A stretch of 64,000 nucleotides of DNA from NCBI RefSeq assembly GCF_045037415.1, contig NZ_CP173438.1; one strand, given 5' to 3'. This stretch comes from Escherichia coli. Lineage in GTDB: Bacteria; Pseudomonadota; Gammaproteobacteria; Enterobacterales; Enterobacteriaceae. The notes below the pieces were generated by a model. It was not told the origin of the DNA. It searched no databases and worked only from the letters and a program-made list of their open reading frames with translations. Made by a program: the position numbers and the translations under genes. Positions within the stretch are counted from its first letter, which is position 1. Each line of letters starts with the position of its first letter. This document shows positions 5,612 through 58,910 of the stretch, one piece after another.

Positions 5612-5630
5612 GAGAATAATAATTATTAAC
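5612..5630. promoter_or_regulatory. Fur-box-like site in irp2 promoter region (GAGAATAATAATTATTAAC)
   Basis: AT-rich 19-mer resembling Fur consensus GATAATGATAATCATTATC, about 45 bp upstream of irp2 ATG; iron regulation of yersiniabactin genes is established. Confidence 0.5.
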
Positions 5631-5695
5631 AATTGGATGCTACCCGAAACGGGTTTATTTATGCCCGTTTCGGGTTGGTAACAGGCGGAAAGAAC

Positions 5696-5727
5696 AGAGG
5701 CCCTGATGGGGTATCCGGGCCTCTGTC
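5696..5727 (-). terminator. Hairpin downstream of ybtA stop (CAGAGGCCC...GGGCCTCTG), putative terminator
   Basis: 9-bp inverted repeat 30-60 nt past the ybtA stop codon; no strong U-run, so weak. Confidence 0.35.
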
Positions 5728-5757
5728 AGGGAGGAGTTTAGGGGGGCGCGACCCCGG

Positions 5758-6717
5758 TTACATCCCGCGTTTAAAGGTCGAAGGAGTTACGCCAAACTGT
5801 TTCTGGAAGGCGGCAGAGAAATGGCTGGCGTTGGCATAGCCCAGATCGGCCGCCACCGTCATGACGGAGGTATTGCCGTTGGCCAGGCGTCTTCTGGCTT
5901 CCTGCATTCGTTCAGCCTGAAACAGGCCATAGACGCTGTTGTTGAACAGAACGCGGAAGCCTCGCTTAATTTTGAGAACGCTCAGACCGGACTCTCTGGC
6001 CAGCTCCGCGACGCCCGGCGCTTGCGTCAGATCAGCCAGCAGCAGATCCTTCGCCCGCAGCAGTTTCTGGCGTTCCATCGGGGTGAAGTGGCAGGAGAGG
6101 CAACTGGCGTCTTCGCGATGTTCATCCAGCACCAGACTGAGCATGACCAGACTTTGCCCCTGCAACCATAGCGTCGACGGCTTTTGTTCATGACTGAAGC
6201 CGCTGTGCATGCGCATCAGCGCGTGACGCAAGGCCTGAGCCGTTAAGTGGGTTTCAGCATTACAACGGTGCTGCTGGCAACAGCAGTGGGAGTCGATCTT
6301 ATTCTTAATGACCGCGCTAATATCCGGCACCCACAGCGCGAGGGTTTCAGGGCTGAAGGAGAGGGTAATGCTCTCGAATCGGCCACAATAGGAGGCGCTG
6401 CCGCGACAGTCTGGCGTATGGGTAATGTAATGGCGATTGCGCGCAAGCTCCCAGTCGGTGTGACGCCGGAGTCCCTGAATCGCAAAGCGCGATGTGCCTT
6501 CCAGGATGCACGAGAAGTTAATCCTGCCCAGATCGTCGTGTAGCTGCAACGTCTCAGGCCGCGCAAAATGGCCCCTCCAGAGCAAAATATCCATACCTTC
6601 CTGCAACGAACAGCGCAGCAGTTCACACTGAGCAGGAATATTGCCATCGTTTGCAGGTTTCCCGACCACCAACTGGTGAATAGAGATTTCAGATTGCGTT
6701 TGCGGTGACTCCGTCAT
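5758..6717 (-). CDS. ybtA: AraC-family transcriptional activator of yersiniabactin genes
   Basis: 319-aa ORF; C-terminal AraC-type HTH region; position between irp2 and divergent ybtP as in the HPI. Confidence 0.9.
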   Translation of the reverse strand: MTESPQTQSEISIHQLVVGKPANDGNIPAQCELLRCSLQEGMDILLWRGHFARPETLQLHDDLGRINFSCILEGTSRFAIQGLRRHTDWELARNRHYITHTPDCRGSASYCGRFESITLSFSPETLALWVPDISAVIKNKIDSHCCCQQHRCNAETHLTAQALRHALMRMHSGFSHEQKPSTLWLQGQSLVMLSLVLDEHREDASCLSCHFTPMERQKLLRAKDLLLADLTQAPGVAELARESGLSVLKIKRGFRVLFNNSVYGLFQAERMQEARRRLANGNTSVMTVAADLGYANASHFSAAFQKQFGVTPSTFKRGM

Positions 6718-6786
6718 GACCTGGTTATCTCCCTGTGGCTTAGACCAATGCGGGTATAAATAGAACCGAATGGGGTAGATGAGTTA

Positions 6787-6807
6787 TTGATAATGGTTAT
6801 TATTCAC
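6787..6807. promoter_or_regulatory. Fur-box-like site in ybtA/ybtP divergent promoter region (TTGATAATGGTTATTATTCAC)
   Basis: Match to Fur consensus in the 166-bp intergenic region between divergent ybtA and ybtP. Confidence 0.5.
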
Positions 6808-6883
6808 ATTAATTCTCAGAACGCCACCCTGAATTGTCGTTTTTGGCGTCCGTAAAAATTCATCAGGAAATTCAGTTACTCCC

Positions 6884-8686
6884 ATGTCATCTCAATCATC
6901 CAATACTGAATCGCTGTCCCGATTTCCTCTTTGGCAGGTGATTACACCGGTTCGCAGGAAGGTTATTTTAGCTATGGCGCTGGCGGGGCTGGCGGCATTA
7001 ACCAGCCTGGGGGCGCTCCTTTTTCTGGCGTGGAGCCTGCGTGACATTCGCGCGACGCCTGACGCTATTCCGGCCTGGCCGCTGGGCGGCGTGATCGGCT
7101 GCGTGGTCTTAACTTTTGTTCTGCGCTTACAGGCGTTCAACACCTCTCATTACGCGGCTTTTCATCTGGAGAACATTCTGCGCAGCAGGTTAGCCCGTAA
7201 AGCATTGCAGCTTCCGCCTGGCGTGTTACAGCAAATGGGCAGCGGGTCAGTGGCGAAAGTGATGCTGGATGACGTGAAGTCGTTACATATTTTTGTGGCC
7301 GACAGCACGCCGCTCTATGCCCGCGCGATCATCATGCCGCTGGCGACAATCGTTATCTTGTTCTGGCTGGACTGGCGGCTGGCAATCGCGACGCTGGGGG
7401 TACTGGCGTTTGGATCGGTTGTTCTCGTGCTCGCCCGCCAGCGTTCGGAAGATATGGCTCAGCGTTATCATAAGGCGCGCGAGCAGGTTAGCGCGGCGGT
7501 TATTGAGTTCGTGCAGGCCATGCCCGTGGTGAGAACGTTTGATAGCGGCAGCACCAGTTTTTTGCGCTATCAACGCGCCCTTGAAGAGTGGGTCGATGTG
7601 CTCAAAACCTGGTATCGCAAAGCCGGTTTTTCAGCGCGTTTTTCCTTCTCGATTCTGAATCCTCTCCCGACCCTGTTTGTCCTGATCTGGTCGGGATACG
7701 GCCTGTTGCACTATGGCAGTTTCGATTTTATCGCGTGGGTGGCCGTTTTACTGCTGGGCAGCGGAATGGCCGAAGCCGTAATGCCAATGATGATGCTCAA
7801 TAACCTGGTCGCGCAAACGCGTTTAAGCATTCAGCGTATTTATCAGGTTCTCGCGATGCCGGAGTTATCGCTGCCGCAGTCTGACCAGCAGCCGCAAGAG
7901 GCGAGCATTACCTTTGAGCAGGTGAGCTTTCATTATCCGCAAGCGCGTACTGGCGCCGCGTTGCAGGAGGTGAGCTTTCATGTGCCTGCCGGGCAAATTG
8001 TGGCGCTGGTCGGGCCAAGCGGCGCCGGAAAAAGCACCGTGGTGCGCTTGCTGCTGCGTTACGCCGACCCGGACAAAGGCCATATCCGTATTGGCGGCGT
8101 GGATCTGCGTGATATGCAGACGGACACCCTGATGAAGCAACTCTCGTTTGTGTTTCAGGACAACTTCCTTTTTGCCGACACGATAGCCAATAACATTCGT
8201 CTGGGCGCGCCGGATACGCCGCTGGAGGCGGTTATAGCGGCGGCCAGAGTGGCGCAGGCCCATGATTTTATTAGCGCTCTGCCAGAAGGTTACAACACTC
8301 GAGTCGGGGAACGTGGGGTATTTCTCTCCGGCGGCCAGCGGCAGCGCATTACTATCGCCCGGGCGCTTTTGCAGGATCGCCCCATCCTGGTGCTCGATGA
8401 GGCGACGGCGTTTGCTGACCCGGAAAACGAAGCGGCGCTTATCAAGGCGCTCGCGGCGGCCATGCGTGGCCGGACGGTCATCATGGTCGCGCATCGTCTC
8501 TCAATGGTGACTCAGGCCGATGTGATATTGCTGTTTTCCGACGGACAGCTCAGGGAAATGGGGAACCATACGCAACTGTTGGCGCAGGGCGGCCTGTATC
8601 AACGGCTCTGGCAACACTATCAGCAGGCGCAGCATTGGGTGCCGGGTGGAACACAGGAAGAGGTGATGGAAAATGAAAGACAATAA
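6884..8686 (+). CDS. ybtP: ABC transporter permease/ATPase fusion (yersiniabactin transport)
   Basis: 600-aa ORF; N-terminal transmembrane region then Walker A GPSGAGKST, ABC signature LSGGQRQR, Walker B ILVLDEAT. Confidence 0.9.
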   Translation: MSSQSSNTESLSRFPLWQVITPVRRKVILAMALAGLAALTSLGALLFLAWSLRDIRATPDAIPAWPLGGVIGCVVLTFVLRLQAFNTSHYAAFHLENILRSRLARKALQLPPGVLQQMGSGSVAKVMLDDVKSLHIFVADSTPLYARAIIMPLATIVILFWLDWRLAIATLGVLAFGSVVLVLARQRSEDMAQRYHKAREQVSAAVIEFVQAMPVVRTFDSGSTSFLRYQRALEEWVDVLKTWYRKAGFSARFSFSILNPLPTLFVLIWSGYGLLHYGSFDFIAWVAVLLLGSGMAEAVMPMMMLNNLVAQTRLSIQRIYQVLAMPELSLPQSDQQPQEASITFEQVSFHYPQARTGAALQEVSFHVPAGQIVALVGPSGAGKSTVVRLLLRYADPDKGHIRIGGVDLRDMQTDTLMKQLSFVFQDNFLFADTIANNIRLGAPDTPLEAVIAAARVAQAHDFISALPEGYNTRVGERGVFLSGGQRQRITIARALLQDRPILVLDEATAFADPENEAALIKALAAAMRGRTVIMVAHRLSMVTQADVILLFSDGQLREMGNHTQLLAQGGLYQRLWQHYQQAQHWVPGGTQEEVMENERQ

Positions 8687-10475
8687 TCCTGCGGATAACC
8701 TGGCCTGGCGCGTCATCTGGCGCCAGCTTATCTCCAGCGTTGGCAGTCAGGCCAGGATGCTGCGACGCAGTATGCTGGCGCTGTTGCTGGCGGCATTCAT
8801 GCAGGGGATCGCCTTTGCCTGTCTTTATCCGATCATTGATGCGCTGTTACGGGGAGACGCGCCGCAACTTCTTAACTGGGCTATGGCCTTCAGCGTCGCC
8901 GCAATTGTGACGCTGGTGCTACGCTGGTATGGCCTGGGCTTTGAATACCGTGGTCATCTGGCGCAGGCTACCCATGAGTTGCGCCTGCGACTTGGCGAGC
9001 AGTTACGCCGCGTGCCGCTGGAGAAGCTCCAGCGCGGCAGGGCGGGTGAAATGAACGCCTTGCTGCTGGGCAGCGTGGATGAAAACCTCAATTATGTTAT
9101 TGCGATAGCCAATATTTTGCTGCTCACCATTGTCACGCCGCTGACGGCGTCGCTGGCGACATTGTGGATAGACTGGCGGCTGGGGCTGGTGATGTTGCTG
9201 ATCTTCCCTCTGCTGGTGCCGTTTTATTACTGGCGCCGCCCGGCGATGCGGCGACAAATGCAGACGCTGGGGGAAGCGCACCAGCGTCTGAGCGGCGATA
9301 TCGTTGAATTTGCTCAGGGGATGATGGTATTGCGCACCTGCGGCAGCGATGCCGATAAAAGCCGGGCGCTGCTGGCGCATTTCAATGCGCTGGAAAACTT
9401 ACAGACCCGCACTCACCGTCAGGGCGCTGGCGCGACGATGCTGATCGCCAGCGTCGTGGAGTTGGGCCTACAGGTGGTGGTGTTATCCGGGATCGTCTGG
9501 GTAGTGACGGGCACTCTGAACCTCGCCTTTTTGATTGCCGCCGTCGCGATGATTATGCGCTTCGCAGAACCGATGGCGATGTTTATCAGCTACACCTCGG
9601 TTGTGGAACTGATCGCCAGCGCCCTGCAAAGGATTGAGCAGTTTATGGCGATAGCACCGCTTCCCGTCGCAGAGCAAAGCGAGATGCCGGAACGTTACGA
9701 TATCCGCTTTGACAACGTCAGCTATCGCTACGAAGAAGGTGACGGCCACGCGCTTAATCATGTTTCTTTGACGTTCCCGGCAGCCAGTATGAGCGCGCTG
9801 GTGGGTGCCTCCGGCGCAGGCAAAACTACCGTCACCAAACTGTTAATGCGCTATGCCGATCCGCAGCAAGGGCAGATTTCTATTGGCGGCGTCGATATTC
9901 GCCGCCTGACGCCGGAACAGCTCAATAGCCTGATTTCTGTTGTTTTCCAGGATGTCTGGCTGTTTGATGACACGCTGCTGGCGAATATCCGTATCGCGCG
10001 CCCACAGGCGACGCGGCAGGAGGTAGAAGAGGCCGCCCGCGCGGCGCAGTGCCTTGAGTTTATTTCCCGTCTTCCGCAAGGCTGGCTGACGCCAATGGGA
10101 GAGATGGGCGGCCAGCTATCGGGCGGCGAGCGCCAGCGGATTTCCATTGCCAGAGCGTTATTGAAAAACGCGCCGGTCGTTATTCTCGATGAACCGACTG
10201 CCGCGCTGGATATTGAAAGCGAGCTGGCGGTGCAAAAAGCGATCGATAACCTGGTTTACAACCGGACGGTGATTATCATCGCTCACCGTTTATCCACCAT
10301 CGCCGGGGCCGGAAACATTCTGGTGATGGAAGAGGGACAGGTGGTTGAGCAGGGTACTCATGCGCAATTGCTCTCACATCATGGACGTTATCAGGCGCTG
10401 TGGCAGGCGCAAATGGCCGCGCGCGTGTGGCGCGACGACGGGGTTTCCGCGTCTGGAGAGTGGGGGCATGAGTGA
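8673..10475 (+). CDS. ybtQ: ABC transporter permease/ATPase fusion (yersiniabactin transport)
   Basis: 600-aa ORF overlapping ybtP end; Walker A GASGAGKTT, signature LSGGERQR, Walker B VILDEPT. Confidence 0.9.
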   Translation: MKDNNPADNLAWRVIWRQLISSVGSQARMLRRSMLALLLAAFMQGIAFACLYPIIDALLRGDAPQLLNWAMAFSVAAIVTLVLRWYGLGFEYRGHLAQATHELRLRLGEQLRRVPLEKLQRGRAGEMNALLLGSVDENLNYVIAIANILLLTIVTPLTASLATLWIDWRLGLVMLLIFPLLVPFYYWRRPAMRRQMQTLGEAHQRLSGDIVEFAQGMMVLRTCGSDADKSRALLAHFNALENLQTRTHRQGAGATMLIASVVELGLQVVVLSGIVWVVTGTLNLAFLIAAVAMIMRFAEPMAMFISYTSVVELIASALQRIEQFMAIAPLPVAEQSEMPERYDIRFDNVSYRYEEGDGHALNHVSLTFPAASMSALVGASGAGKTTVTKLLMRYADPQQGQISIGGVDIRRLTPEQLNSLISVVFQDVWLFDDTLLANIRIARPQATRQEVEEAARAAQCLEFISRLPQGWLTPMGEMGGQLSGGERQRISIARALLKNAPVVILDEPTAALDIESELAVQKAIDNLVYNRTVIIIAHRLSTIAGAGNILVMEEGQVVEQGTHAQLLSHHGRYQALWQAQMAARVWRDDGVSASGEWGHE

Positions 10476-11748
10476 TGTTCAGTCGAATGTGAAACCGCTG
10501 ACGTTGACGACCGGGCGGGTGATTTTTGCTATTGCCGGCGTCTATGTGACGCAGAGTCTGGTATCGGCGCTGTCTATGCAGTCCTTACCCGCGCTGGTGC
10601 GCGCTGCTGGCGGTTCGCTGGCGCTTGCCGGTGCGACAACCCTGTTTATGCTGCCCTGGGCGCTGAAGTTTATTTGGGCGCCGTGGATCGAGCGCTGGCG
10701 GCTTCCGCCCGGTAGCCAGGAACGCCGTTCCCGCATGTTAATCCTGCGTGGTCAGGTCGCGCTAGCGGCGATCCTGACTATTGCCGCAGCGATTGGCTGG
10801 TTTGGGCGAGAAGGGGGATTCCCCGATACGCAAATCGTCGCGTTATTTGTTCTGTTTATGGTGGCAGGCACGGTCGCCTCCACCATTGATATCGCCAGCG
10901 ACGGCTTTTGTGTCGATCAACTGACCCGCACGGGTTACGGCTGGGGAAACAGCGTGCAGGTCGGCGGCAGCTATCTGGGAATGATGTGCGGCGGCGGGGT
11001 GTTCATGATGCTGTCGGCGGCATCCGGCTGGCCTGTCGCCATGCTGATGATGGCGGTGCTGATTATGGCGCTGTCACTCCCGCTGTGGCGCATTACGGAG
11101 CCGACGCGAACAGCGACTATCCCGCATGTTCCGGCGTTAGGTTATGCGCTAAGGAGGAAGCAGGCGCGCCTGGGCTTACTGCTGGTATTGATGCTGAATT
11201 CAGGCATGCGGTTTGTGCTGCCTCTTCTGGCACCGCTGTTGTTGGATCATGGGTTGAGCATGTCCGCATTGGGCGCGCTGTTCAGCGGCGGCAATATTGC
11301 AGCGGGCATAGCAGGAACGCTGGCCGGCGGATTGCTGATGAAATACACCTCACCCGGCAGAGCGCTGTTGACGGCTTATGGCGTCCAGGGGATCGCGCTG
11401 CTGGCGGTGGTGATGACGCTCATGATGGCGCCGGGTCATCTGCTGCTGCAGATTCTCCAGTGTCTGGTCATTGTCCAGTCCATTTCGCTGGCCTGCGCGC
11501 TGGTCTGTCTTTACGCCACGCTGATGTCGCTTTCATCGCCTTTGCAGGCCGGTGTCGACTTCACCCTCTTTCAATGTACTGATGCGGCAATCGCCATTCT
11601 GGCAGGCGTTATCGGTGGCGTTGTTGCTCAACATTTTGGCTATGCGGCCTGCTTCCTGTTTGCCGGGGCATTCACGTTGCTGGCGGCGTGGGTTGCTTAT
11701 ATCCGGCTGCATTCGGCAAGAGAACTGATGACAAGCGCAATTGATTGA
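10468..11748 (+). CDS. ybtX: MFS-type membrane protein of the yersiniabactin locus
   Basis: Polytopic hydrophobic protein; start chosen at ATG 10468 (MSDVQSNVK), which overlaps the ybtQ stop and gives 426 aa; the track ORF starting at 10345 is an upstream extension. Confidence 0.8.
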   Translation: MSDVQSNVKPLTLTTGRVIFAIAGVYVTQSLVSALSMQSLPALVRAAGGSLALAGATTLFMLPWALKFIWAPWIERWRLPPGSQERRSRMLILRGQVALAAILTIAAAIGWFGREGGFPDTQIVALFVLFMVAGTVASTIDIASDGFCVDQLTRTGYGWGNSVQVGGSYLGMMCGGGVFMMLSAASGWPVAMLMMAVLIMALSLPLWRITEPTRTATIPHVPALGYALRRKQARLGLLLVLMLNSGMRFVLPLLAPLLLDHGLSMSALGALFSGGNIAAGIAGTLAGGLLMKYTSPGRALLTAYGVQGIALLAVVMTLMMAPGHLLLQILQCLVIVQSISLACALVCLYATLMSLSSPLQAGVDFTLFQCTDAAIAILAGVIGGVVAQHFGYAACFLFAGAFTLLAAWVAYIRLHSARELMTSAID

Positions 11749-11775
11749 TCCGCGAATAACACAGAGAGGTAAGGG

Positions 11776-13080
11776 ATGAAAATCAGTGAATTTCTACATC
11801 TGGCGTTACCAGAGGAACAATGGCTACCGACGATTTCTGGCGTTTTACGCCAGTTCGCAGAAGAAGAGTGTTATGTCTATGAGCGTCAACCCTGTTGGTA
11901 TTTAGGCAAAGGGTGCCAGGCACGGCTGCACATTAATGCCGACGGAACGCAGGCGACATTTATTGATGATGCCGGGGAGCAAAAATGGGCGGTGGATTCC
12001 ATTGCCGACTGCGCGCGTCGTTTTATGGCGCATCCTCAGGTGAAAGGACGTCGGGTATATGGACAGGTTGGGTTCAACTTTGCGGCGCATGCGCGGGGGA
12101 TTGCCTTTAACGCCGGGGAGTGGCCGCTGCTGACGTTAACCGTTCCCCGTGAAGAACTTATTTTTGAAAAGGGAAATGTCACCGTTTATGCGGACTCCGC
12201 CGACGGGTGCCGACGTTTGTGCGAGTGGGTAAAAGAGGCCGGTACAACGACGCAGAACGCACCACTGGCGGTGGATACCGCCCTCAATGGTGAGGCATAT
12301 AAACAACAGGTTGCGCGCGCCGTTGCGGAGATCCGCCGTGGCGAGTATGTCAAAGTGATTGTCTCGCGCGCCATTCCCCTGCCATCGCGGATTGATATGC
12401 CCGCCACGCTGTTATACGGGCGGCAGGCAAACACGCCTGTGCGCTCGTTTATGTTCCGTCAGGAAGGACGCGAAGCGCTGGGCTTTAGCCCAGAACTGGT
12501 GATGTCAGTGACGGGCAATAAAGTGGTCACTGAACCGCTTGCGGGCACCCGCGATCGCATGGGAAACCCGGAGCATAATAAGGCGAAAGAGGCAGAACTG
12601 CTGCACGACAGTAAAGAGGTGCTTGAGCATATCCTTTCTGTCAAAGAAGCTATTGCTGAACTGGAGGCCGTTTGCCAGCCGGGCAGCGTGGTGGTTGAAG
12701 ATTTAATGTCGGTTCGCCAGCGCGGCAGCGTTCAGCATCTGGGGTCTGGCGTGAGCGGTCAGCTTGCGGAAAACAAGGATGCCTGGGATGCGTTTACCGT
12801 GCTGTTTCCGTCGATTACCGCCTCAGGTATCCCTAAAAATGCTGCTCTGAACGCGATTATGCAAATTGAGAAGACGCCGCGAGAGCTTTATTCCGGCGCA
12901 ATCCTGCTGCTGGACGATACGCGCTTTGATGCGGCGCTAGTTCTGCGTTCCGTATTTCAGGATAGCCAGCGCTGCTGGATACAGGCGGGGGCGGGAATCA
13001 TCGCGCAATCTACGCCGGAACGCGAACTGACAGAAACCCGGGAGAAATTAGCGAGCATTGCGCCCTATTTAATGGTGTAG
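11776..13080 (+). CDS. ybtS: Salicylate synthase (chorismate-utilising enzyme)
   Basis: 434-aa ORF with RBS; chorismate-binding fold motifs (anthranilate/isochorismate synthase family); last gene of ybtPQXS operon. Confidence 0.9.
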   Translation: MKISEFLHLALPEEQWLPTISGVLRQFAEEECYVYERQPCWYLGKGCQARLHINADGTQATFIDDAGEQKWAVDSIADCARRFMAHPQVKGRRVYGQVGFNFAAHARGIAFNAGEWPLLTLTVPREELIFEKGNVTVYADSADGCRRLCEWVKEAGTTTQNAPLAVDTALNGEAYKQQVARAVAEIRRGEYVKVIVSRAIPLPSRIDMPATLLYGRQANTPVRSFMFRQEGREALGFSPELVMSVTGNKVVTEPLAGTRDRMGNPEHNKAKEAELLHDSKEVLEHILSVKEAIAELEAVCQPGSVVVEDLMSVRQRGSVQHLGSGVSGQLAENKDAWDAFTVLFPSITASGIPKNAALNAIMQIEKTPRELYSGAILLLDDTRFDAALVLRSVFQDSQRCWIQAGAGIIAQSTPERELTETREKLASIAPYLMV

Positions 13081-13273
13081 GAGTAACTGTTTTCTAACCT
13101 CACAACCAGACTGTCCAAAGACAATTGAGTCGCTCTTTGATTCCTCTGTGACTCTATTGTCTTCTTTTGGGATAAAATAGGTGTTTTTCGTCATGAAGTT
13201 GATAAAAGTCTATATAGAACCACCTCTTGTGGAGGTGGTGGTAATTTGCCAGAGTGTGGGATTCGTTAGTATA

Positions 13274-14536
13274 CTATGGGATAAACTTATTTTTACCAAT
13301 TGTATAAGGCGGTGCATAAGATTCTCGGCATGCTTCCAGATAATCCGACCACCACTGCATCATCGCTTTGCGGGCTTCCAGGTGCTCTGCCTTATGAATA
13401 TAAGCCATGCGCACGGTATTGCGCTCCTGATGACTCATCTGGCGTTCTACTGCGTCCTTTGCCCATAAACCCGATTCCATCAGCGCACTGCATGCCATTG
13501 CCCGGAAGCCGTGACCGCAGATATCCTTTTTCGTGTCGTAACCCATCACCCGCAGTGCCTTATTGACCGTGTTTTCACACATTGGCTTATACGGGTTATG
13601 GTCGCCGGGGAAGATCAGTTCATTATTACCGGTGATATCCTTAATCTGTTTCAGAATGGCGATGGACTGTTCTGAGAGGGGGACGATATGCGGCATTCGC
13701 ATTTTTGCCCCGCGGCCGGAATAACGCACGCCAATAATGGGTTCTCGCGTCGCGGGTATCGTCCAGACTCGGTTTGTGAAATCAATCTCTGACCAGCGGG
13801 CGAAACGCAGTTCACTGGAGCGAATGAACACATGCAGCATCAGCAGAACGGCATGCCGGGTCAGTTCACGGCCCTGATGATATGCCCCAATACGTTCAAG
13901 CAGTTCAGGCAGCCGCTCCAGCGGCAGGGCAGGATAGTGCCGTCTGACAGGAGGTGTGGTCACGCCGCCAAGGTTTGCTGCAGGGTTCGTATCGATTAAC
14001 TCCTGATGGACCGCATGGCGCATTATGTTACTCAGGTGCTGCCGTGTGCGGGACGCAACCTCCAGCAGACCTTTTTCCTCGATCCCTTTCAGCAGGTCAA
14101 TGAAATGACGGGGTTTAAGTTCTGATACAGGTAGGTTCCCGATGACCGGAAAGATGTGATTGTTCAGGCTGGCAAGCAGACGGTCGGCGGTGTTCTGCGA
14201 CCATTTCCTGTTACTTTTATGCCACGCCAGCGCCACGTTTTTAAAAACTTTCTCCGGTGTTCGTGAGCCACGTACAGCAGCCCGCTGCTGTACCGGGTTG
14301 ATATTCAGCGCCAGCATTTTACGGATACCTTCACGTTGCTGTCGCGCATCAGACAGGGAGATGGCTGGATAGGTACCCAGCGCAATGCGGGATTCTTTAC
14401 CGCTAATACGGTATTTGAGATACCAGTGGCGGGAGCCACCCGGCTTGACCCGCAGATACAGACCGTGAGAATCGGAGACTTTAAAGGGTTTATCAGAAGG
14501 CTTGAGGGTGCGGATTTTTGCGCTGGTAAGGGACAT
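13274..14536 (-). CDS. intB: P4-like tyrosine integrase of the HPI
   Basis: 420-aa ORF adjacent to tRNA-Asn; tyrosine recombinase C-terminal catalytic region; HPI synteny. Confidence 0.85.
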   Translation of the reverse strand: MSLTSAKIRTLKPSDKPFKVSDSHGLYLRVKPGGSRHWYLKYRISGKESRIALGTYPAISLSDARQQREGIRKMLALNINPVQQRAAVRGSRTPEKVFKNVALAWHKSNRKWSQNTADRLLASLNNHIFPVIGNLPVSELKPRHFIDLLKGIEEKGLLEVASRTRQHLSNIMRHAVHQELIDTNPAANLGGVTTPPVRRHYPALPLERLPELLERIGAYHQGRELTRHAVLLMLHVFIRSSELRFARWSEIDFTNRVWTIPATREPIIGVRYSGRGAKMRMPHIVPLSEQSIAILKQIKDITGNNELIFPGDHNPYKPMCENTVNKALRVMGYDTKKDICGHGFRAMACSALMESGLWAKDAVERQMSHQERNTVRMAYIHKAEHLEARKAMMQWWSDYLEACRESYAPPYTIGKNKFIP

Positions 14537-14697
14537 ATGGGGGTCACTCCATTATCGAACTAACCTGACCCCAGATTTGACCACCAATTTTTCCCGATGC
14601 GTAGGGTAAAATCAAAATGCACTGAGAAGAGTTTTCACACTAACCTGTTGAATCAACATCAGATAAAGATTCGCAAGGATGCATGAAAACAGAAAAT

Positions 14698-14773
14698 TGG
14701 CTCCTCTGACTGGACTCGAACCAGTGACATACGGATTAACAGTCCGCCGTTCTACCGACTGAACTACAGAGGA
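14698..14773 (-). tRNA. asnT: tRNA-Asn (GTT anticodon)
   Basis: 76-nt exact reverse complement of the E. coli tRNA-Asn sequence as recalled, ending CCA; assignment to the asnT copy is inferred from adjacent mtfA. Confidence 0.9.
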
Positions 14774-15764: not shown

Positions 15765-15855
15765 GGAGAGATGCCGGAGCGGCTGAACGGACCGGTTCTC
15801 GAAAACCGGAGTGGGGGCAACTCCACCGGGGGTTCAAATCCCCCTCTCTCCGCCA
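15765..15855 (+). tRNA. serU: tRNA-Ser (CGA anticodon region), serU-like, 3' part rebuilt from prophage attachment site
   Basis: 91 nt, GGAGAGA acceptor stem pairing with TCTCTCC, long variable arm, ends CCA; differs from canonical serU as recalled by one extra T in the anticodon loop and a compensatory G/C pair in the variable arm. Confidence 0.75.
15793..15855 (+). repeat. attL core: 63-bp direct repeat (tRNA-Ser 3' segment, phage-type variable arm)
   Basis: Identical to 55886-55948 except two positions (GTGGGGG/CTCCACC here versus GTAGGGG/CTCTACC at attR); identity ends exactly at CCA. Confidence 0.7.
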
Positions 15856-15900: not shown

Positions 15901-15933
15901 CTTGGAATTACTTGGAATATTTTCTTGGAATAT
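15901..15933. repeat. Three direct repeats of CTTGGAAT(A/T)T, putative integrase arm-type binding sites
   Basis: CTTGGAATTA, CTTGGAATAT, CTTGGAATAT within 33 bp next to attL core, overlapping int 3' end; related copies at 55774-55783 and inverted at 55838-55846. Confidence 0.45.
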
Positions 15934-16933
15934 TTTCAGGTAACGGGACATCAAGTGTTGGTGAAACTTTAACCTTCCTGTCATAGATTAGCACTTGCCC
16001 CTCGGTTTTGTGACCAGAGAAAAGTTGCTTATCCCGGCTGCTTCCTTCATAGTCTGAAATTCCTTTCGCCTTCAGATCATGAAAGGTGAAGTCGGTTAAA
16101 ATACCTGAAATTTTGCCTGCGCGATTTCTTGCTTCTACCCACATTTCGTTAAAGCCTTTGTACATATATCGGTTGCCATATTGATTGCTGATTACATAGA
16201 CGGATGCTGGTAACTGTTTTGCTTTTTCGATCGCCGCCTGTAATCGTGGACTCCATGCTTTTATCTGTTTTTTCCCTGTTTTCCCTTGCTGGATAAAGAT
16301 CCCGTCGTTTCCAATCTGCTCCCATTTCAGTGATAACACATCGGAAACCCTCGCTGCACACAGATAGGCAATTTCCATTGCGATAAAAACAGGAAGAGGT
16401 GCAACGCTTAATACTGCCTGGTATTCTTTGTCGGTTACATATCGTTCGCGGTTTTTGGCCTTGAATTTACTTACACCTGCACATGGGTTAGCCTTCACGT
16501 ACCCTCGCTCATATCCCCAACTGTAAACGCGGGACATACTGCTTTTTTCATGGTTGGCTTGCGTTTTGCTCTGTTCCCCTCTTTTGTCCATGTATCGACG
16601 GATGTGTTCTGGTTTTATGGAATCCGCTGGTACCTTACCGAATACGGCAAGCAACTTTTTTTGATGTTGCAGATAATCTTTTTGTGTTCTTGGGCTAAGG
16701 TCACTGTAACAGGCGCTGGCGAGGAATTTTTCCCACAAGCGACCGAATGTCATTGCACGATCGCGATTATTTACAGTTTCCTCATACTTTTTCCATAAAG
16801 CAGCTAAACCATCCTTGATGGCGGTTAGTGTTACAGATTCTCTGGATGTTGGTTTCCATACATAACTATATTTATTTGGGTATACATTTGGAGGTAATTT
16901 TTCGTGTTCAGGATTTTTCCTTCGTCTTCCCAT
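15908..16933 (-). CDS. int: Phage tyrosine integrase
   Basis: 341-aa ORF next to attL/tRNA; C-terminal recombinase-type region (candidate HxxR and Tyr motifs). Confidence 0.9.
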   Translation of the reverse strand: MGRRRKNPEHEKLPPNVYPNKYSYVWKPTSRESVTLTAIKDGLAALWKKYEETVNNRDRAMTFGRLWEKFLASACYSDLSPRTQKDYLQHQKKLLAVFGKVPADSIKPEHIRRYMDKRGEQSKTQANHEKSSMSRVYSWGYERGYVKANPCAGVSKFKAKNRERYVTDKEYQAVLSVAPLPVFIAMEIAYLCAARVSDVLSLKWEQIGNDGIFIQQGKTGKKQIKAWSPRLQAAIEKAKQLPASVYVISNQYGNRYMYKGFNEMWVEARNRAGKISGILTDFTFHDLKAKGISDYEGSSRDKQLFSGHKTEGQVLIYDRKVKVSPTLDVPLPENIPRKYSK

Positions 16934-49109: not shown

Positions 49110-50185
49110 ACGACAATGTCACGCTACGGGTAAATGGCCGGGAGTGGAATGGCTGGACATCGGTGCGCATCGGTGCCGGTATTGAACGGCTGGCGCGGGA
49201 TTTCAGTGTGGAGATCACCCGCCAGTGGCCGGGTGATGAGGGTATCACCACGCTTCAGCCGCGCATTAAAAACGGTTCAAAAGTGGAAGTGCTGATTGGT
49301 GATGAGCTGGTGATCACCGGCTGGGTGGAGGCGACTCCCGTTCATTACGATGCCCGTTCGGTCAGCACCGGTATTGCCGGACGTAGTCTGACGGCTGACC
49401 TGATTGACTGTGCAGCCGAACCGACACAGTTTAACGGACGCTCGCTGGTGCAGATTGCGCAGGCGCTTGCTGCGCCTTTCGGCATTGAGGTGGTGAACAG
49501 CGGTGCGCCATCGGGTGTTATTCCTGATGTTCAGCCTGATCACGGTGAAACGGTGATTGAGGTAATCAACAAAATACTCGGTCAGCAGCAGGCACTGGCT
49601 TACGACGACCCGCACGGCAGGCTGGTGATTGGCGGTATTGGCTCAACGCGGGCACATACCGCGCTGGTACTTGGGGAAAATATCCTTTCCTGTGATACGG
49701 AGAAGAGTATCCGGGAGCGGTTTTCTGTTTACCAGGTGGCGGGGCAGCGTGCCGGAAACGACGATGATTTCGGTGAGGCCACCACCACCGCGCTGCGGGC
49801 CCGCACAGAGGACGCATTTATTGCCCGTTACCGTCCGATGTATATCAGGCAGACAGGGCAGGCTACGGGGGCAGGCTGTATTGCGCGTGCTGACTTTGAA
49901 GCCCGACAACGGGCGGCGCGGACGGATGAAACCACCTATGTGGTGCAGGGCTGGCGACAGGGTAACGGTACGCTGTGGCAGCCCAACCAGCGGGTGATTG
50001 TCTTTGATCCGGTCTGTGGTTTTGACAATACCGAACTGCTTGTCTCGGAAGTCACGTTTACTCAGGACCAGAACGGCACCCTGACGGAAATCCGTGTCGG
50101 CCCGCCTGATGCTTATCTGCCTGAACCCGAAGACCCCGGCGCGCGGAAAAAGAAAAAAGCCAGAGTACAGGAGGACCCGTTCTGA
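49106..50185 (+). CDS. Mu P-like tail/baseplate hub protein
   Basis: 359 aa. Confidence 0.65.
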   Translation: MNDNVTLRVNGREWNGWTSVRIGAGIERLARDFSVEITRQWPGDEGITTLQPRIKNGSKVEVLIGDELVITGWVEATPVHYDARSVSTGIAGRSLTADLIDCAAEPTQFNGRSLVQIAQALAAPFGIEVVNSGAPSGVIPDVQPDHGETVIEVINKILGQQQALAYDDPHGRLVIGGIGSTRAHTALVLGENILSCDTEKSIRERFSVYQVAGQRAGNDDDFGEATTTALRARTEDAFIARYRPMYIRQTGQATGAGCIARADFEARQRAARTDETTYVVQGWRQGNGTLWQPNQRVIVFDPVCGFDNTELLVSEVTFTQDQNGTLTEIRVGPPDAYLPEPEDPGARKKKKARVQEDPF

Positions 50186-50733
50186 TGAGGGCGATTGAAG
50201 CCATGCAGCGACAACTACTCGGCCTGATTGGGCGGGCCGTGGTGAAAAGCATCAGTGCCGCCACGAAATGTCAGACCGTGGATGTGTCCCTGATTGCCGG
50301 TGAACCCAAAGCCGGGGTTGAACATCTTGAACCCTACGGTTTTACCGCAAGGGCAAACAGCGGTGCGGAAGCGGTGGTGTTGTTTCCGGATGGCGACCGT
50401 TCTCATGCGGTGGTTGTTACGGTGTCGGACCGGCGCTACCGCCTGAAAGGACTGCAGACGGGTGAGGTGGCTGTCTATGACGATCAGGGGCAGTCCGTGA
50501 CGCTGACCCGGGAGGGGATCGTGGTGGACGGTGCAGGTAAAACGATCACGTTTCGCAATTCACCTAAAGCACGTTTTGAAATGGACCTGGAAGTGACAGG
50601 ACAGGTGAAAGACCTGTGCGACTCCGGCGGCACCACCATGTCAGCGATGCGGCTTGCCTATAACGGGCATCGTCACAGAGAGAACGGTCAGGGCAGTAAC
50701 ACCGACAAACCGGATAAAGCGATGGAGGCATGA
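50185..50733 (+). CDS. Baseplate assembly protein V-like (spike)
   Basis: 182 aa. Confidence 0.6.
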   Translation: MRAIEAMQRQLLGLIGRAVVKSISAATKCQTVDVSLIAGEPKAGVEHLEPYGFTARANSGAEAVVLFPDGDRSHAVVVTVSDRRYRLKGLQTGEVAVYDDQGQSVTLTREGIVVDGAGKTITFRNSPKARFEMDLEVTGQVKDLCDSGGTTMSAMRLAYNGHRHRENGQGSNTDKPDKAMEA

Positions 50734-51158
50734 TGGAACTGTGGCTGACGGTGAACGGTAAACGCACCTGCGCCAGCGCACCGCTGGATCCGCTGACCCG
50801 CGCCGTGGTGATTTCCCTGTTTACCTGGCGGCGGGCGGAGCCTGATGACAACGCCGACGTCCCGATGGGATGGTGGGGGGATACCTGGCCTGCGGTACAG
50901 AATGACCGTTACGGCTCCCGGCTGTGGCTGCTTCAGCGCAGCAAACTGACCAATCAGCTGGTGCAGACGGTAAGGGGGTATATCCGCGAATGCCTGCAAT
51001 GGATGATTGATGACGGCGTGGTGTCCCGTATTGATCTGGATATCCGCCGCACCGGGATTAATGAACTGGGTAACAGTATCACTCTCTGGCGTCGTGACGG
51101 ACCGGTAATGATTTCTTTTGATGATCTGTGGAGTGCGATAACGCATGGCGGACAGTGA
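50730..51158 (+). CDS. Baseplate protein (Mu gp46 / GPW-like)
   Basis: 142 aa. Confidence 0.6.
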   Translation: MMELWLTVNGKRTCASAPLDPLTRAVVISLFTWRRAEPDDNADVPMGWWGDTWPAVQNDRYGSRLWLLQRSKLTNQLVQTVRGYIRECLQWMIDDGVVSRIDLDIRRTGINELGNSITLWRRDGPVMISFDDLWSAITHGGQ

Positions 51159-52203
51159 ATTTCAGCGCCCGACGCTGGCAGAAAATATCAGTATGCTCCG
51201 TAACGATTTATTCGCCAGGCTGGACGTCAGCGACACGCTCCGGCGCATGGATGAAGACGTGCGGGCAAAGGTGTATGCGGCGGCGCTGCATACGGTTTAT
51301 GGGTACATCGATTATCTGGCAATGAATATGCTGCCTGACCTGTGCGATGAGTCCTGGCTGGCACGACATGCTGCGATGAAACGGTGTCCGCGCAAGGGGG
51401 CCACGGCTGCCAGCGGGTATATGCGCTGGGAAGGTGTCAGCGATGGCCTGAAGGTGACTGCCGGGAGCGTGATTCAGCGCGATGACCTGGTTCAGTACAC
51501 GGCAACTGCCGATGCAACCAGCTCCGGTGGTGTCCTGCGTGCGCCGATCACTTGCTCAACTACAGGCGCGGTCGGTAACGCTGACGACGGTACGGCATTA
51601 ATCCTGGTCACGCCGGTGAATGGTCTGCCGTCTTCCGGTGTTGCAGATACCCTGACTGGCGGATTCGATACTGAAGATCTGGAAACGTGGCGCGCCCGCG
51701 TCATTGAGCGGTATTACTGGACGCCGCAGGGCGGGGCTGACGGGGACTATGTCGTCTGGGCTAAAGAAGTGCCCGGCATTACCCGCGCATGGACATACCG
51801 TCACTGGATGGGAACGGGAACTGTCGGTGTGATGATTGCCAGCAGTGACCTGATTAATCCCATTCCGGAAGAATCAACGGAAACGGCGGCAAGACAACAT
51901 ATCGGGCCACTGGCCCCGGTGGCAGGCTCTGATTTATATGTATTCAGGCCGGTGGCGCATAAAGTGGATTTTCATATCCGCGTGACGCCGGACACACCGG
52001 AAATACGGGCTGCCATCACCGCCGAGTTGCGTTCGTTCCTGCTGCGTGATGGTTATCCGCAGGGAGAACTGAAGGTGTCGCGTATCAGTGAAGCGATTTC
52101 CGGTGCGAACGGGGAATACAGCCATCAGTTGCTTGCACCGGCAGACAATATCTCCATTGCAAAAAATGAACTGGCGGTACTGGGGACGATTTCATGGACG
52201 TGA
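51145..52203 (+). CDS. Baseplate J-like protein
   Basis: 352 aa. Confidence 0.75.
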
Positions 52204-52778
52204 CAAACGATGATTACATCCGTCTGTTGTCGGCACTGTTGCCCCCCGGTCCGGCGTGGTCATCCAGCGATCCAGCGATTGCCGGTGCGGCACCGTCATT
52301 AACCCGCGTTCATCAGCGTGCGGATGCCCTGATGCGGGAGCTGGATCCGCGCACCACCACTGAACTGATAAACCGCTGGGAGCGTCTGTGCGGCCTGCCG
52401 GATGAATGTATTCCGGCGGGAACGCAGACCCTTCGCCAGCGTCAGCAACGGCTGGATGCGAAGGTTAATCTGGCGGGCGGCATCAATGAGGATTTTTACC
52501 TTGCACAGCTTGCTGCCCTGGGCAGACCAGACGCCACCATCACGCGATACGACAAAAGCACGTTCACCTGCTCATCGGCCTGTACTGACGCAGTGAATGC
52601 GACGGAATGGCGGTATTACTGGCAGGTCAACATGCCAGCCGCCACCAACACCACCTGGATGACATGTGGCGATCCCTGTGATTCCGCACTGCGTATCTGG
52701 GGCGATACCGTTGTCGAGTGCGTGCTTAACAAACTCTGCCCTTCGCATACCTACGTAATTTTCAAATATCCGGAGTAA
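52194..52778 (+). CDS. Tail protein, DUF2313/YmfQ-like (Mu gp48-like)
   Basis: 194 aa. Confidence 0.6.
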
Positions 52779-52781: not shown

Positions 52782-55157
52782 ATGCATCGTATAGACACGA
52801 AAACCGCGCAGAAGGATAAGTTCGGCGCGGGTAAGAACGGTTTTACCCGTGGTAACCCCCAGACCGGCACGCCTGCCACCGATCTGGATGATGACTACTT
52901 TGACATGTTGCAGGAAGAACTTTGCAGCGTGGTGGAGGCCTCCGGTGCCAGTCTGGAGAAGGCGCGGCACGACCAGCTGCTTACCGCGCTTCGTGCGCTG
53001 CTGTTAAGCCGCAAAAATCCGTTTGGCGATATCAAATCGGATGGCACGGTAGAACGCGCTCTTGAAAATCTGGGGTTACAGGATGTAAAAGCTGGTTCAT
53101 TGAACAATCTGTACACTAACCATTCCCGTAGTGTCTTAATGGAATTGCCGTTATTATTCCCAGACTACGATACGGTGCTGGCTGCTCAGTCTGGTGCGGA
53201 ATATATGTATCCACAGGGATTTGTGGTGACAGGAGAAAAAATCTATCTGAGTTATACCGTTGAGCCAAAGCAGACACGGAACGTTATAGTTCAGTACACA
53301 ACATCCGGCGAATATGAGGGATATTATTATGTCGATAATGGAGGTCGTGGCGTTGTCAGCGAAGGCCTTGTGGTGACAACGGATTACGGTGGATTACGTT
53401 TGTTCATGTCAGGAGAAAATGGATTACTGAAACAGTTTTCGCTTGATGGGGCAATTTCTGGTTCAGTATTGCCGTTAATTGATGAACATGATGTCGGTGT
53501 TTACAACCAGTTCAGCTATCGTAAAAACCGCTGGGTGGTTGAACAGTCAGCGCCGGAAGTGGGAGGCCTGATCACCCGCACAGTATTTGCGGTGTATGAT
53601 TTTCAGTTTCGTCGGACAGGGACATTCACATTACCGTTGCATGATTCCGGATATATCACGGAAAGCACAGACAGCTATGCAAGACGCTTCACAAAACGTC
53701 AGGGAATTGCTGTGGGAGACGATTATATTGCCTGTTCTTATGGTGGCTATTTTAATACCGGGGCATCAGCCGGATTTAACCAGTTTCAGGGGGTTAAGGT
53801 CTTTTCTCCGGATGGAGTAAAGCAGCAGGAATCCATTCTTCATCCCCAAAAAATGATAGATGTGCTTACCAGGCAGGGTTTTACACCTTCGCGCATTGAG
53901 AACGAAGGAATTTGTATTTCTGACGACGGCGGCAGTATATATTCGCTTTATATCTTTCTGGAGCGTGGGTTACCACAGGCTTATCAGAAAGGAATTGTTC
54001 TGATGAAAGAGTTCAGTACTGGCAGAGATGCTATTGATTTTCGTCAGGCAGCCTGGTTGTACACGGGGTTTGATGTGTCTCATGCCAGTATTGGAACATT
54101 TCCCCGTAGTGCCCAGGGGTTGGTAAACCCGGTGTTGGGGACGGTATTCACATCCCTGTCTGAAATTCTGGCATATATGCGTTCTGTGAGTCAGAAATGG
54201 TTTTGTCTGCATACAACCACGACACCGATTAAAGATCTGAGTGGAAATGACATTCCTGCTGACAATTATGTGTTCATCAAGAATGCTAATAACCAGACAT
54301 TCTATATAACGCAGGAGTCAGCTGAAGGTGGAATAAAATATAAAGCTGTCACTACAGACAGCGGAGAATATGGTTTTCAGCGACAAAGAGAGGCAATCTG
54401 GTCCAATGTTATCACCATCGCACAAAAGAGCGATGGTGAGGATCAGTTTAATCGTATTATCGCTGCCTCGAAAAGTGGTTCAGGTAAAAATCAGGATAAA
54501 ATACTGGTAGTTGACCAACAGGCATCAGAGGGGAATAACACGCTGGTAATTGGCGGTGGTTCATCTGTGTTCAGGTCAGCGACAGTGATTGATTTTGCAA
54601 CGAATCAGGATGCAAATGCCACAGGAGGAGAAAAGAGATGGCGCATAGATTCATCAGGAAATCTCCGCCCTTATACAGATAATACGTATTCGATCGGTTA
54701 TGCCTCATGGCGACCCGCACAGGTTTATTCAGCTACGGGAAGTATCAGTACATCAGACCGGACTCATAAACAGGACGAAACAATTCTGTCGGATGCAGAA
54801 AAAAGGGTTGCCAGAAAGCTGCTCGGGTATATCTGTCGGTTCCGTTTCAGAGATGCAGTGTCCAGCAAAGGGAACGCAGCCAGATGGCATGTAGGAGTGA
54901 TTGCTCAGGACGTACAGAAGGTCTTCTCTGAGGAAGGGCTGGACGCTTTTGATTACGGTATTTTGTGTCGTGATGAATATCCGGCGGAATATGAAGTGGT
55001 TTACGGGACTCGTATGGAGCTTGGTCCTGACGGACTCCTTACAATGGAAGAATACGATACCGGAGAGCGCAAGCTGGTCAGGGAGGCTGGTGAAATAATG
55101 TCTGTAAGGAATGATGAGCTGCATTATTTCATGCTGGCATCGCTGTCTGGCCAGTGA
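52782..55157 (+). CDS. Tail fiber protein with C-terminal intramolecular chaperone (peptidase S74-like) domain
   Basis: 791 aa; conserved N-terminus, AT-rich variable central part, C-terminal S-D-R-T-H-K motif (about 54750-54770) and downstream conserved block typical of self-cleaving chaperone domains. Confidence 0.75.
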
Positions 55158-55773
55158 ATAATATTAATGTAAGGAGCGATATAAGCTCCTTACATCATGC
55201 ATTTTATGCTGCGATTATGCGTTCTCCTGTTGTTTGTTGCTGAGAGTGAAACACCGGAAACATACTGGTGGATTGAAATGTTCTGTGTGGCAGCGTATGA
55301 ATATGTCGTGGTAGGGTGGATAAAAAATGCCCGTGATGATCCGGGCAACATAGCAGTATGCATTTTTCTATTGTGAACTGATGCATTATACAAGTAATGC
55401 TGTTATTGAGGAAAGTTTAAAGAAGCGGCTCTTCTCCGCCTGTAAAGTTTGGTCATTATTGCTTTATATATAAGTTCCACCAGTAGGCGATCATCTATGA
55501 TGTTGGCATATCGACTTTGTATAAGAGGTTTCCGGTCGGAGATAAATGAAACCGTAGCACGTCGTATGCAAGAACGTGCCACGGCTGGCTGGCGAACTTT
55601 CGATAGTGCGAGTATTGAATGATTTCCAGCTGTTACTGATTTTATATAACTGCAGTGGAATTATTCAACACACAGGCAAAACGGAATAAGCTGAGAAAAA
55701 AAAGCGTGCTTTCCCAATCTGGGGTAAATCACATCTGAATGACACCTGAAAACAGGTGGTGGCCTCAAGAAGG

Positions 55774-55846
55774 CTTGGAATATTCTTCTTTAATGTTATG
55801 TAATTTATTGATTTTTCGTGTACGATTTTAAGACATTTATTCCAAG
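55774..55846. repeat. Integrase arm-type site copies at right prophage end (CTTGGAATAT at 55774-55783; inverted TATTCCAAG at 55838-55846)
   Basis: Same decamer as the triple repeat next to attL. Confidence 0.4.
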
Positions 55847-55885
55847 AAAAATTTTTAACTCTTTGATTTTTCGACTCTGTATCAT

Positions 55886-55948
55886 CGGTTCTCGAAAACC
55901 GGAGTAGGGGCAACTCTACCGGGGGTTCAAATCCCCCTCTCTCCGCCA
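55886..55948 (+). repeat. attR core: 63-bp direct repeat carrying the host-type tRNA-Ser 3' segment
   Basis: Matches 15793-15855 with two mismatches; variable arm here matches canonical serU as recalled. Confidence 0.7.
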
Positions 55949-56493
55949 CTTTATCAATGACTTATCTCCCGACTTCCCGCCTTGCTTTTCCTAAACAGAA
56001 CAATCGTAGGATATTCTTGAAGGGTTAGATCGTCACTGTTTTCTGTTCGATACTGTGACATTCAGCACTTGATTCGCTATGGGTCTGACAGGAAGGTTTC
56101 GAGCGAAAATCTACAGTTATTCAGTCGTTTTCTTATCGGTCACCATTATTCTTTTAGACATTGATCCTATGAAACTGCCGCAAAGTTGCTGGCGGGAACT
56201 GAAGTTGCGTAGAGAAGGGGTCAATAATTGAGCCAAAAAAGGAACGCGGCCGTCAGATTAAAGCCGCGGGACAAAGTCCATAATTTCCAAGAGTTGTTGA
56301 ATTTCCCAGCTTTTTTGAAAGCCTTTGTATCATACTAACAAGTAAAAAAGGTTTAAACACCAAAATTAACCTATATTTCTGGTTAGCTTTACCATGACAG
56401 ATGACTTGCTCCTGGAGACATTTGCGCTGCCAGTCTGTATGGCTGAGTTGTGTATTTATTGTTCGCCTTTTTCTCAGTTTTTTTCTACAGACA

Positions 56494-57477: not shown

Positions 57478-58910
<1,433 letters not shown>

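Follow-up and report, generated by a model that had tools for sequence, protein, structure and literature searches.

An SfV-type prophage tail fibre of Escherichia coli ST131 with an exchanged propeller body and a predicted self-cleaving S74 chaperone

The 64,000 nucleotides of Escherichia coli DNA analysed in this study (contig NZ_CP173438.1 of assembly GCF_045037415.1; hereafter the window) hold a prophage of about 40 kb, and the last gene of this prophage raises the question of how a tail fibre whose beginning belongs to one phage lineage came to carry a distal part of foreign composition, and how such a protein could be folded without the assembly gene that follows the fibre gene in phage SfV. 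An initial annotation, made from the letters of the sequence, had proposed a tail fibre with an exchanged central domain and a self-cleaving C-terminal chaperone domain. As presented below, the product is very probably a receptor-binding tail fibre composed of an SfV-type adaptor, an imported propeller body and a predicted self-cleaving chaperone of the Peptidase_S74 (S74) type, with everything beyond the adaptor swapped in as one cassette. The gene is the following:

52782-55157, plus strand: complete gene of the tail fibre or receptor-binding protein, 791 amino acids, 87.6 kDa as precursor, in an uninterrupted open reading frame (ORF)

The prophage is an SfV-like temperate myovirus with a Mu-type baseplate, inserted in the serU tRNA gene of E. 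coli sequence type 131 (ST131), and the locus is 100% identical to E. coli O25b:H4-ST131 chromosomes. Its tail module belongs to the SfV group. A complete Mu-type baseplate set lies upstream at 47736-52778 (homologues of gp43, gp44, gp45, gp46, gp47 and gp48/YmfQ), and the fibre gene directly follows the gp48/YmfQ homologue, i.e., it stands at the same place as orf21 of SfV and stfP of e14. This position after the gp43-gp48 homologues and the matches of the 791-residue protein to tail fibre and tailspike families of PHROG support the tail fibre identity proposed initially. The frame is open across all 791 codons, at least 998 contigs in public databases encode an identical protein, under the name 'tail fiber domain-containing protein', and the full 791-residue product is named in GenBank submissions.

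The place where the gene changes its relatives could be located within a short stretch of sequence, and the parts of the gene that are needed for this comparison are as follows:

52782-53069, plus strand: N-terminal baseplate-attachment module of the SfV orf21 / e14 StfP type, residues 1-96, delimited by DNA and protein identity and by GC content
52971-53078, plus strand: conserved linker and recombination joint, residues 64-99, set by the limits of identity to the fibre of a second prophage and to SfV
52971-55316, plus strand: exchangeable cassette from the linker to 159 nucleotides past the stop codon, 97.3% identical over 2349 aligned positions to 8193-10533 of the second prophage locus (L004)
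55167-55195, no strand assigned: terminator-like hairpin 10 nucleotides past the stop codon, with a stem of 11-13 bp, from a pattern scan of both strands

In a megablast search of phage genomes only the first 287-296 nucleotides of the gene were matched, with 94-96.5% identity to SfV, SfI, SfII, SfIV and their relatives (96.5% over 287 nucleotides for the SfV orf21 / e14 StfP type). Residues 1-60 are identical to those of SfV orf21 and the two proteins are near-identical up to residue 99; in the DNA alignment, near-identity lasts until 53050, ALENLGL is then encoded by different codons, and from 53078 onward similarity is gone. A set of complete E. coli genomes, 5426 in number, included 1570 with the N-terminal piece and 56 with the near-full-length gene. 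A joint between a conserved N-terminal and a variable distal part at the ENLGL-coding sequence agrees with the way in which tail fibres are divided into constant and variable parts in Mu, P1, e14 and p15B (Sandmeier 1994, cited in PMC4134206).

The other side of the joint was defined by a second prophage, which lies beside the psp operon and encodes a 791-residue relative of the fibre behind Mu-type baseplate proteins that differ in size (403, 216, 116, 359 and 190 residues). Identity to this fibre begins at 52971 (codon 64) and continues as a single unbroken 97.3% block over the centre, the C-terminus and 159 nucleotides downstream, with the hairpin falling inside it. Therefore, the exchanged unit is the whole distal fibre together with its chaperone and the terminator-like hairpin, and not the central domain alone; one junction can be demonstrated, near residues 64-99, and the propeller, stalk, chaperone, stop codon and the 159 nucleotides beyond travel as a single block. 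A third N-terminus, found in 807-residue forms of the same 90% cluster, is also joined to this body within the linker stretch, so that in E. coli the same body stands behind three N-terminal adaptors, all joined within residues 64-99. In a protein-guided alignment of the two cassette copies, 32 synonymous and 9 non-synonymous differences were counted over 727 codons, giving a ratio of non-synonymous to synonymous substitution rates (dN/dS) of 0.089; the fibre body is under strong purifying selection. Just downstream of the copy beside the psp operon (8001-10633 of L004), an ORF of 61 amino acids is called. The C-terminal segment was also matched at two places in some ST131-type genomes, so that one cell may carry the same receptor-binding cassette on the tails of two different prophages.

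The junction with SfV at 53050-53085 lies on the ALENLGL-coding sequence, CTTGAAAATCTGGGGTTACAGGAT, which by manual comparison matches the crossover site of the EC958 Phi4 invertase at about 18 of 26 positions; 26-bp DNA-invertase crossover sites have been tabulated for the EC958 prophages (PMC4134206). The bases coding for ENLGL thus resemble the crossover sites of EC958 prophages, and in one relative, vB_EcoM-689R6, an invertase adjoins the fibre. Neither an invertase gene nor an inverted alternative fibre segment was found in the present prophage, and the exchange of the distal part is fixed rather than switchable.

Base composition along the gene is in concordance with the first of these borders. 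Residues 1-96 have a GC content of 0.556 (0.625 at third codon positions, GC3), like that of the upstream tail genes (GC 0.571, p=0.64). From residue 97 to 657 the GC content is 0.450 (p=6e-18 versus the tail genes) and GC3 is 0.41, while in the tail genes it is about 0.6. For the last 134 codons the GC content is 0.495, which is significantly lower than in the tail genes (p=0.0035) but not significantly different from the centre (p=0.11). The initial annotation had described an AT-rich centre between about 110 N-terminal and about 140 C-terminal residues of typical GC content. The centre is AT-rich indeed, and the N-terminal part is typical, but over about 90-99 residues only; the C-terminal part does not have the GC content of the tail genes. 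The N-terminal GC step is real and the C-terminal return to 'typical GC' is not.

These values bear on the possibility that only the central domain was replaced and that the N-terminus and the S74 C-terminus on either side of it are both resident, in which case two junctions are required. The slight rise of GC content from 0.450 to 0.495 in the last 134 codons could be taken as a sign of this, although the p values given above place the C-terminus with the centre rather than with the resident tail genes. In the wider family, similar propellers do occur with different subtypes of S74 (proteins P0003 and P0007 versus P0005, P0006 and P0008), so a second joint exists in evolution. However, the unbroken block common to both prophages runs across the centre and the C-terminus alike, and SfV-type fibres, unlike the present one, have no S74 domain but a Tfa (tail fibre assembly) protein instead. 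The C-terminal 558 nucleotides occur in 57 of the 5426 genomes, all at no less than 99% identity, versus 56 genomes for the near-full-length gene, and the C-terminus is therefore no independently conserved resident part; as such a module it was ruled out. An exchange of the central domain alone is thus very unlikely. Of the exchange proposed initially, the horizontal swap stands, with one junction near residues 64-99, whereas the C-terminus belongs to the same imported block.

The part of the cassette that could replace an assembly gene is its C-terminus, where the following features were recognised:

54444-54752, plus strand: β-stalk before the predicted cleavage site, about residues 555-657, by alignment to 4uw7 and 3gw6
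54753-55154, plus strand: intramolecular chaperone domain, Peptidase_S74, residues 658-791, 15.3 kDa, by Pfam and fold matches
54753-54770, plus strand: predicted catalytic dyad S658...K663 (SDRTHK), by alignment to T5 pb1 and GA-1 and by invariance

The Pfam family PF13884 (Peptidase_S74) matched residues 658-720 along the entire model (E=1.3e-9) and scored 38.6 bits, where 22 is the cut-off. The motif STSDRTHK, on which the chaperone had originally been proposed, is present at residues 656-663 (54747-54770) and includes S658-x4-K663; the conserved block expected downstream of it was found as well, with S658, K663, K696, A700, R701, H703, G705 and Q709 invariant in 20 homologues. When the sequences of PDB were searched, the chaperone region matched 4uw8, which is T5 pb1 including its chaperone (E=1e-16), the neck-appendage chaperone of GA-1 (3gud, 1.8e-14) and K1F endoNF (3gw6, 1.1e-13); three other chains from fibres or spikes were matched too, and the E values ranged from 1e-16 to 4e-9 overall. 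S658 aligns with the Ser-to-Ala position S1264A of the T5 pb1 construct and K663 with K1269. Since T657 aligns with the last residue of mature T5 pb1 (4uw7) and the crystallised chain of the GA-1 chaperone begins at the residue aligned to S658, the predicted cut is placed at T657|S658; in EP335 gp13, cleavage was placed after the conserved serine (PMC8217332).

Structure prediction, the check that had been suggested for the chaperone, led to the same fold. The AlphaFold 2 model of residues 600-791 has a predicted local distance difference test score (pLDDT) of 86-97 over residues 659-789, and with this model Foldseek returned ten matches at E of 0.001 or below, all of them chains of 3gw6, 4uw8 and 3gud (target TM-score of 0.77 for 3gud). 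The MyRF ICA domain (7dc3) came next with E of about 5e-3, and everything else had E of 0.4 or more. Family match, alignment to solved structures and predicted fold together support the view that the C-terminus is an S74 intramolecular chaperone, self-cleaving by prediction. It occupies the last 134 residues, and ahead of it residues 590-657 could be aligned to the ends of the stalks in endoNF and mature T5 pb1: the stalk of 3gw6 from residue 590 onward, and 4uw7 over residues 603-657, ending at the last residue of that chain. An End_tail_spike match at residues 621-657 was weak and under threshold. The low pLDDT of the stalk in the monomer model could be caused by the fact that such a segment is expected to fold only in the trimer.

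In this arrangement, i.e., a β-stalk followed by a chaperone of about 130 residues with a Ser-x4-Lys dyad at the junction, the fibre is like T5 pb1 (4uw7/4uw8) and K1F endoNF (3gw6), and with endoNF it also shares a propeller ahead of the stalk. The receptor-binding body, however, is related to neither, T5 pb1 having a different tip and endoNF a sialidase propeller, whereas the propeller of the present protein is five-bladed and of the φ11 type and its N-terminal adaptor is of the SfV/Mu-tail type. In addition, the endoNF-type members have a helical 'RRRxDRIEARL' extension at the C-terminus, which the present chaperone lacks.

If the chaperone is built in, then no separate Tfa gene is needed. 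In SfV, orf21 encodes a fibre of 216 residues, and tail fibre assembly has a gene of its own behind it, orf22 (tfa), whereas here the distal part consists of 690 residues of propeller, stalk and chaperone. The stretch in which such a gene would have to lie is bounded by the right end of the prophage:

55886-55949, plus strand: attR, copy of the 3' part of tRNA-Ser, with 62 of 64 bases identical to the attL copy
15792-15855: attL, inside tRNA-Ser, a 64-nucleotide direct repeat with attR, two mismatches

This repeat of the tRNA-Ser 3' end confirms the attR that had been assumed earlier. All ORFs of at least 25 amino acids across 55158-55950 were listed; no tfa-like gene was found in the 728 bp from the stop codon to attR (55158-55885), where no ORF exceeds 67 amino acids, and six of the small ORFs (37-67 amino acids) had no PHROG match better than E=0.02. 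The claim that a separate assembly gene is absent before attR therefore holds, and the prophage beside the psp operon likewise has no tfa gene. The 728 bp are AT-rich (GC 0.405) and in a DNA search were found to be a patchwork of short patches common to the att-proximal regions of lambdoid phages: the last 200 bp or so before attR are 95-97% identical to the lambdoid phages ev099, PhiR70_1 and mEp332, and about 100 bp (positions 381-487 of the query) match HK97 and HK106. At the equivalent place, SfV has its gtr O-antigen-modification genes.

The remaining part of the cassette, between the linker and the stalk, is composed of two regions:

53121-54011, plus strand: five-bladed β-propeller, about residues 114-410, a putative receptor-binding 'platform'
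54012-54383, plus strand: α/β subdomain, about residues 411-534, from the secondary structure of the model, conserved with the propeller through about residue 514

No Pfam family was matched over residues 100-657, and the same was the case for the propeller in nine diverse relatives. In PHROG the best match was to phrog_1171, 'tail spike protein' (residues 293-788, E=2.9e-133), and residues 119-532 matched phrog_22693, which is labelled glycerophosphodiester phosphodiesterase. A word-indexed search retrieved only 12 clusters, with varying N-terminal domains (TSP1 N-terminal, P22 head-binding, PF18454); an exhaustive HMMER search retrieved 280 representatives at E of 0.001 or below (about 280 clusters at 50% identity), most of which cover positions of about 10-410 of the query, i.e., residues 114-514. 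The AlphaFold model of the body, built from an alignment of 134 sequences, has a pLDDT of 91.9 and a predicted template modelling score (pTM) of 0.85. In this model, residues 114-410 form 20 β-strands arranged as five four-stranded blades, followed by the α/β subdomain and by β-strands leading into the stalk. The best structural neighbours of the propeller model are receptor-binding proteins of staphylococcal phages, to which Foldseek adds the fibres of 80α and P68, and the five-bladed fold can be superimposed on the platform of φ11 Gp45.

Relatives of the body are found on very different virions. In Staphylococcus phage HHU-22, a 670-residue baseplate protein encoded beside BppU is 31% identical over 411 residues and has the motifs LPLxFPDY, YPQ, GEG, KRQG, IExEG, AIDF, FPRS and NANN. 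Lytic coliphages (Kayfunavirus EcoIv41_Bia, HC6, 6947, PBM-2, EK8 and others) have relatives of 37-51% identity, and in other members of the family the body follows adaptors of the P2 type (PF12571), T7 type (PF03906), P22 type and TSP1 type. In one member, the propeller is followed by a GDSL esterase domain. Homologues of lytic phages with propeller and S74 domain are usually labelled endo-N-acetylneuraminidase (e.g., OQ469755.1, PV833354.1, MT862763.1). This label is probably wrong, since the body was not a sialidase propeller in the fold search, and it was presumably taken from the S74 domain alone. In the literature, no description was found of a five-bladed propeller tailspike in coliphages, nor of this prophage in papers on ST131, and the DepoCatalog paper does not mention propellers. 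The propeller family, for which neither a Pfam model nor a characterised member was found, is the less well-known part of this fibre.

The comparison with φ11 Gp45 (5efv) and the related proteins of 80α, NF5 and P68 extends to the 'platform', a five-bladed β-propeller, as well as to its use in a trimeric baseplate fibre, the trimer being predicted in our case. The second-tier structural neighbours are also alike, namely glutaminyl cyclase and five-bladed glycosidases, both of which are included in the neighbour list reported for Gp45 (PMC4901313). In Gp45 the propeller cavity has been proposed as the site for N-acetylglucosamine (GlcNAc) of teichoic acid, which was modelled and not observed directly (PMC4901313). 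On the other hand, identity to Gp45 is only 12%, and the surrounding parts differ: in Gp45 the stem is a coiled coil, the β 'tower' consists of two domains and an S74 chaperone is missing, whereas here an SfV-type adaptor stands at the N-terminus and a β-stalk with S74 domain at the C-terminus. The host of φ11 is Gram-positive and the receptor of Gp45 is teichoic-acid GlcNAc.

Taken together, the modules suggest how the fibre may be made and used. Residues 1 to about 96 would be the lineage-specific adaptor that docks the trimer on the Mu-type baseplate, as their conservation with SfV orf21 and e14 StfP indicates. Residues of about 114-657 would be the imported host-recognition body, i.e., the propeller of the Gp45 'platform' type, the α/β subdomain plus a short β-stalk made by three chains. 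Judging from the homologous endoNF and T5 pb1, the chaperone domains of three chains should come together and bring about trimerisation and the folding of the stalk; Ser658 and Lys663 would then cut at T657|S658, so that the 15 kDa chaperone is freed and a mature subunit of 72 kDa is left. The three propellers could be displayed as the host-recognition surface, as their fold suggests. As for the origin of this arrangement, a distal fibre of the SfV type and its tfa gene were most likely replaced together by the one cassette of about 2.35 kb (52971-55316), with the crossover in the conserved linker, at whose end the ENLGL motif stands.

Several observations weigh against this reading. In sequence, no relation to Gp45 was found: alignment of the 134-sequence profile with hhalign gave a probability of 4% over 28 columns outside the propeller, and 5efv was not among the matches when PDB sequences were searched with a profile hidden Markov model. 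A binding site shared with Gp45 is therefore conjecture, and the protein is related to Gp45 at the level of the fold only and is not a member of the Gp45 family. Moreover, Q307, E373 and E375 are invariant in the 134 sequences, and E194 and K305 nearly so; residues kept in this way across phages of Gram-positive and Gram-negative hosts could point to catalysis rather than simple binding. The annotation of the region is unfavourable as well. The RefSeq pipeline (Prokaryotic Genome Annotation Pipeline, PGAP) splits the ORF at 52782-55157 (8001-10376 of locus L001) into an stfP pseudogene 'missing C-terminus' (nucleotides 1-301) and a separate 'tail fiber domain-containing protein' of 326 amino acids made of the last 326 codons. 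The integrase beside attL, furthermore, is annotated as frameshifted (pseudogene) in a near-identical RefSeq locus, and this prophage copy may therefore no longer make virions; the prophage may be unable to excise.

The conserved residues raise the possibility that the central domain is an enzyme, with O-antigen, capsule or some other glycopolymer as the substrate of a tailspike-type depolymerase or modifying activity, and that the protein is in function a tailspike. This is conceivable but rather doubtful. The name of its best PHROG family is in line with it, the layout of propeller, stalk and S74 domain mirrors that of the endosialidases, and all five residues are kept in the Staphylococcus phage homologue despite a quite different host surface; however, no enzyme family was assigned by Pfam, and the member with a separate GDSL esterase after its propeller looks as if the propeller were not the catalyst. 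A further proposal, which we regard as unlikely, is that Q307, E373 and E375 with E194 and K305 form a shared active site and that the body represents a new class of five-bladed virion-associated enzyme, acting for example on polyol-phosphate, teichoic-acid-like polymers. Some capsule types of E. coli are polymers of this kind, and such an enzyme, if true, could explain why, in ST131-type E. coli, no fewer than three different prophage tails bear the same body. For a receptor-binding fibre, as preferred here, the receptor is most likely a surface glycan.

The annotation, in turn, would be consistent with a decaying remnant, in which an stfP pseudogene was fused by deletion to an unrelated fragment and tfa was lost by deletion of the prophage end. 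Besides the split gene with its middle left unannotated and the frameshifted integrase, the insertion of ISEc52 in the gene in four genomes and the non-coding patchwork of 728 bp downstream would fit such a history. It is nevertheless exceedingly unlikely. The frame is open over 791 codons and its full product is named in GenBank submissions, every domain is complete and confidently modelled, and the same collinear architecture is found with three N-termini in E. coli and also in lytic phages. A dN/dS of 0.089 between the two prophage copies is not what a decaying gene would show, and the second cassette-bearing prophage is without tfa too. The part left unannotated by PGAP is about 1.1 kb of propeller-coding sequence, and the propeller domain is therefore absent from the RefSeq annotation of the genome.

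As a receptor-binding fibre, the protein most likely sets which cells the particles of the prophage adsorb to. S74 chaperones, fibre mosaicism at a joint of constant and variable parts and propeller-bearing spikes are all established, and nothing in the present fibre is conceptually unexpected. The same receptor-binding body is, though, present on at least three tail types in ST131, a globally important pathogen lineage, and in lytic coliphages, and the identity of the receptor would therefore help to predict the host range of phages and to engineer fibres against ST131. With its linker, propeller, stalk, built-in chaperone and terminator-like hairpin, the cassette is a natural plug-in module that works without a helper gene and that is hidden by the split RefSeq annotation.

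Some further observations were made on the gene and on the prophage. In the four complete genomes with ISEc52 (IS3-like), its transposase is annotated between two pieces of the fibre gene that are about 1.25 kb apart (e.g., NZ_CP107140.1, 725957-729585), which indicates that the fibre is insertionally inactivated in some ST131 isolates. The integrase region of the window, 15908-16933 on the minus strand, holds an ORF of 341 amino acids. The tRNA at 15765-15855, the integration site of the prophage, was given by ARAGORN as 'tRNA-???' with anticodon 'cg' and is tRNA-Ser in RefSeq. Two genes within the prophage are possible accessory (moron) genes, one for a 463-residue 'ATP-binding protein' before the holin and one for a DUF2441 protein between the lysis genes and the terminase:

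31508-32899 and 34381-34989: possible moron genes in the prophage (coordinates of locus L006, nearly the same in the window)

Outside the prophage, a yersiniabactin island occupies 1-14773 (irp2, ybtA, ybtPQXS) and has an integrase of its own next to tRNA-Asn, so that two mobile elements directed to tRNA genes lie about 1 kb apart, with only mtfA between them. On the other side, just beyond the prophage, an IS3-family element is found at 57520-58878 between zinT and msrQ; it is annotated as IS1397 with a programmed-frameshift transposase and has an ORF of 452 amino acids in the window.

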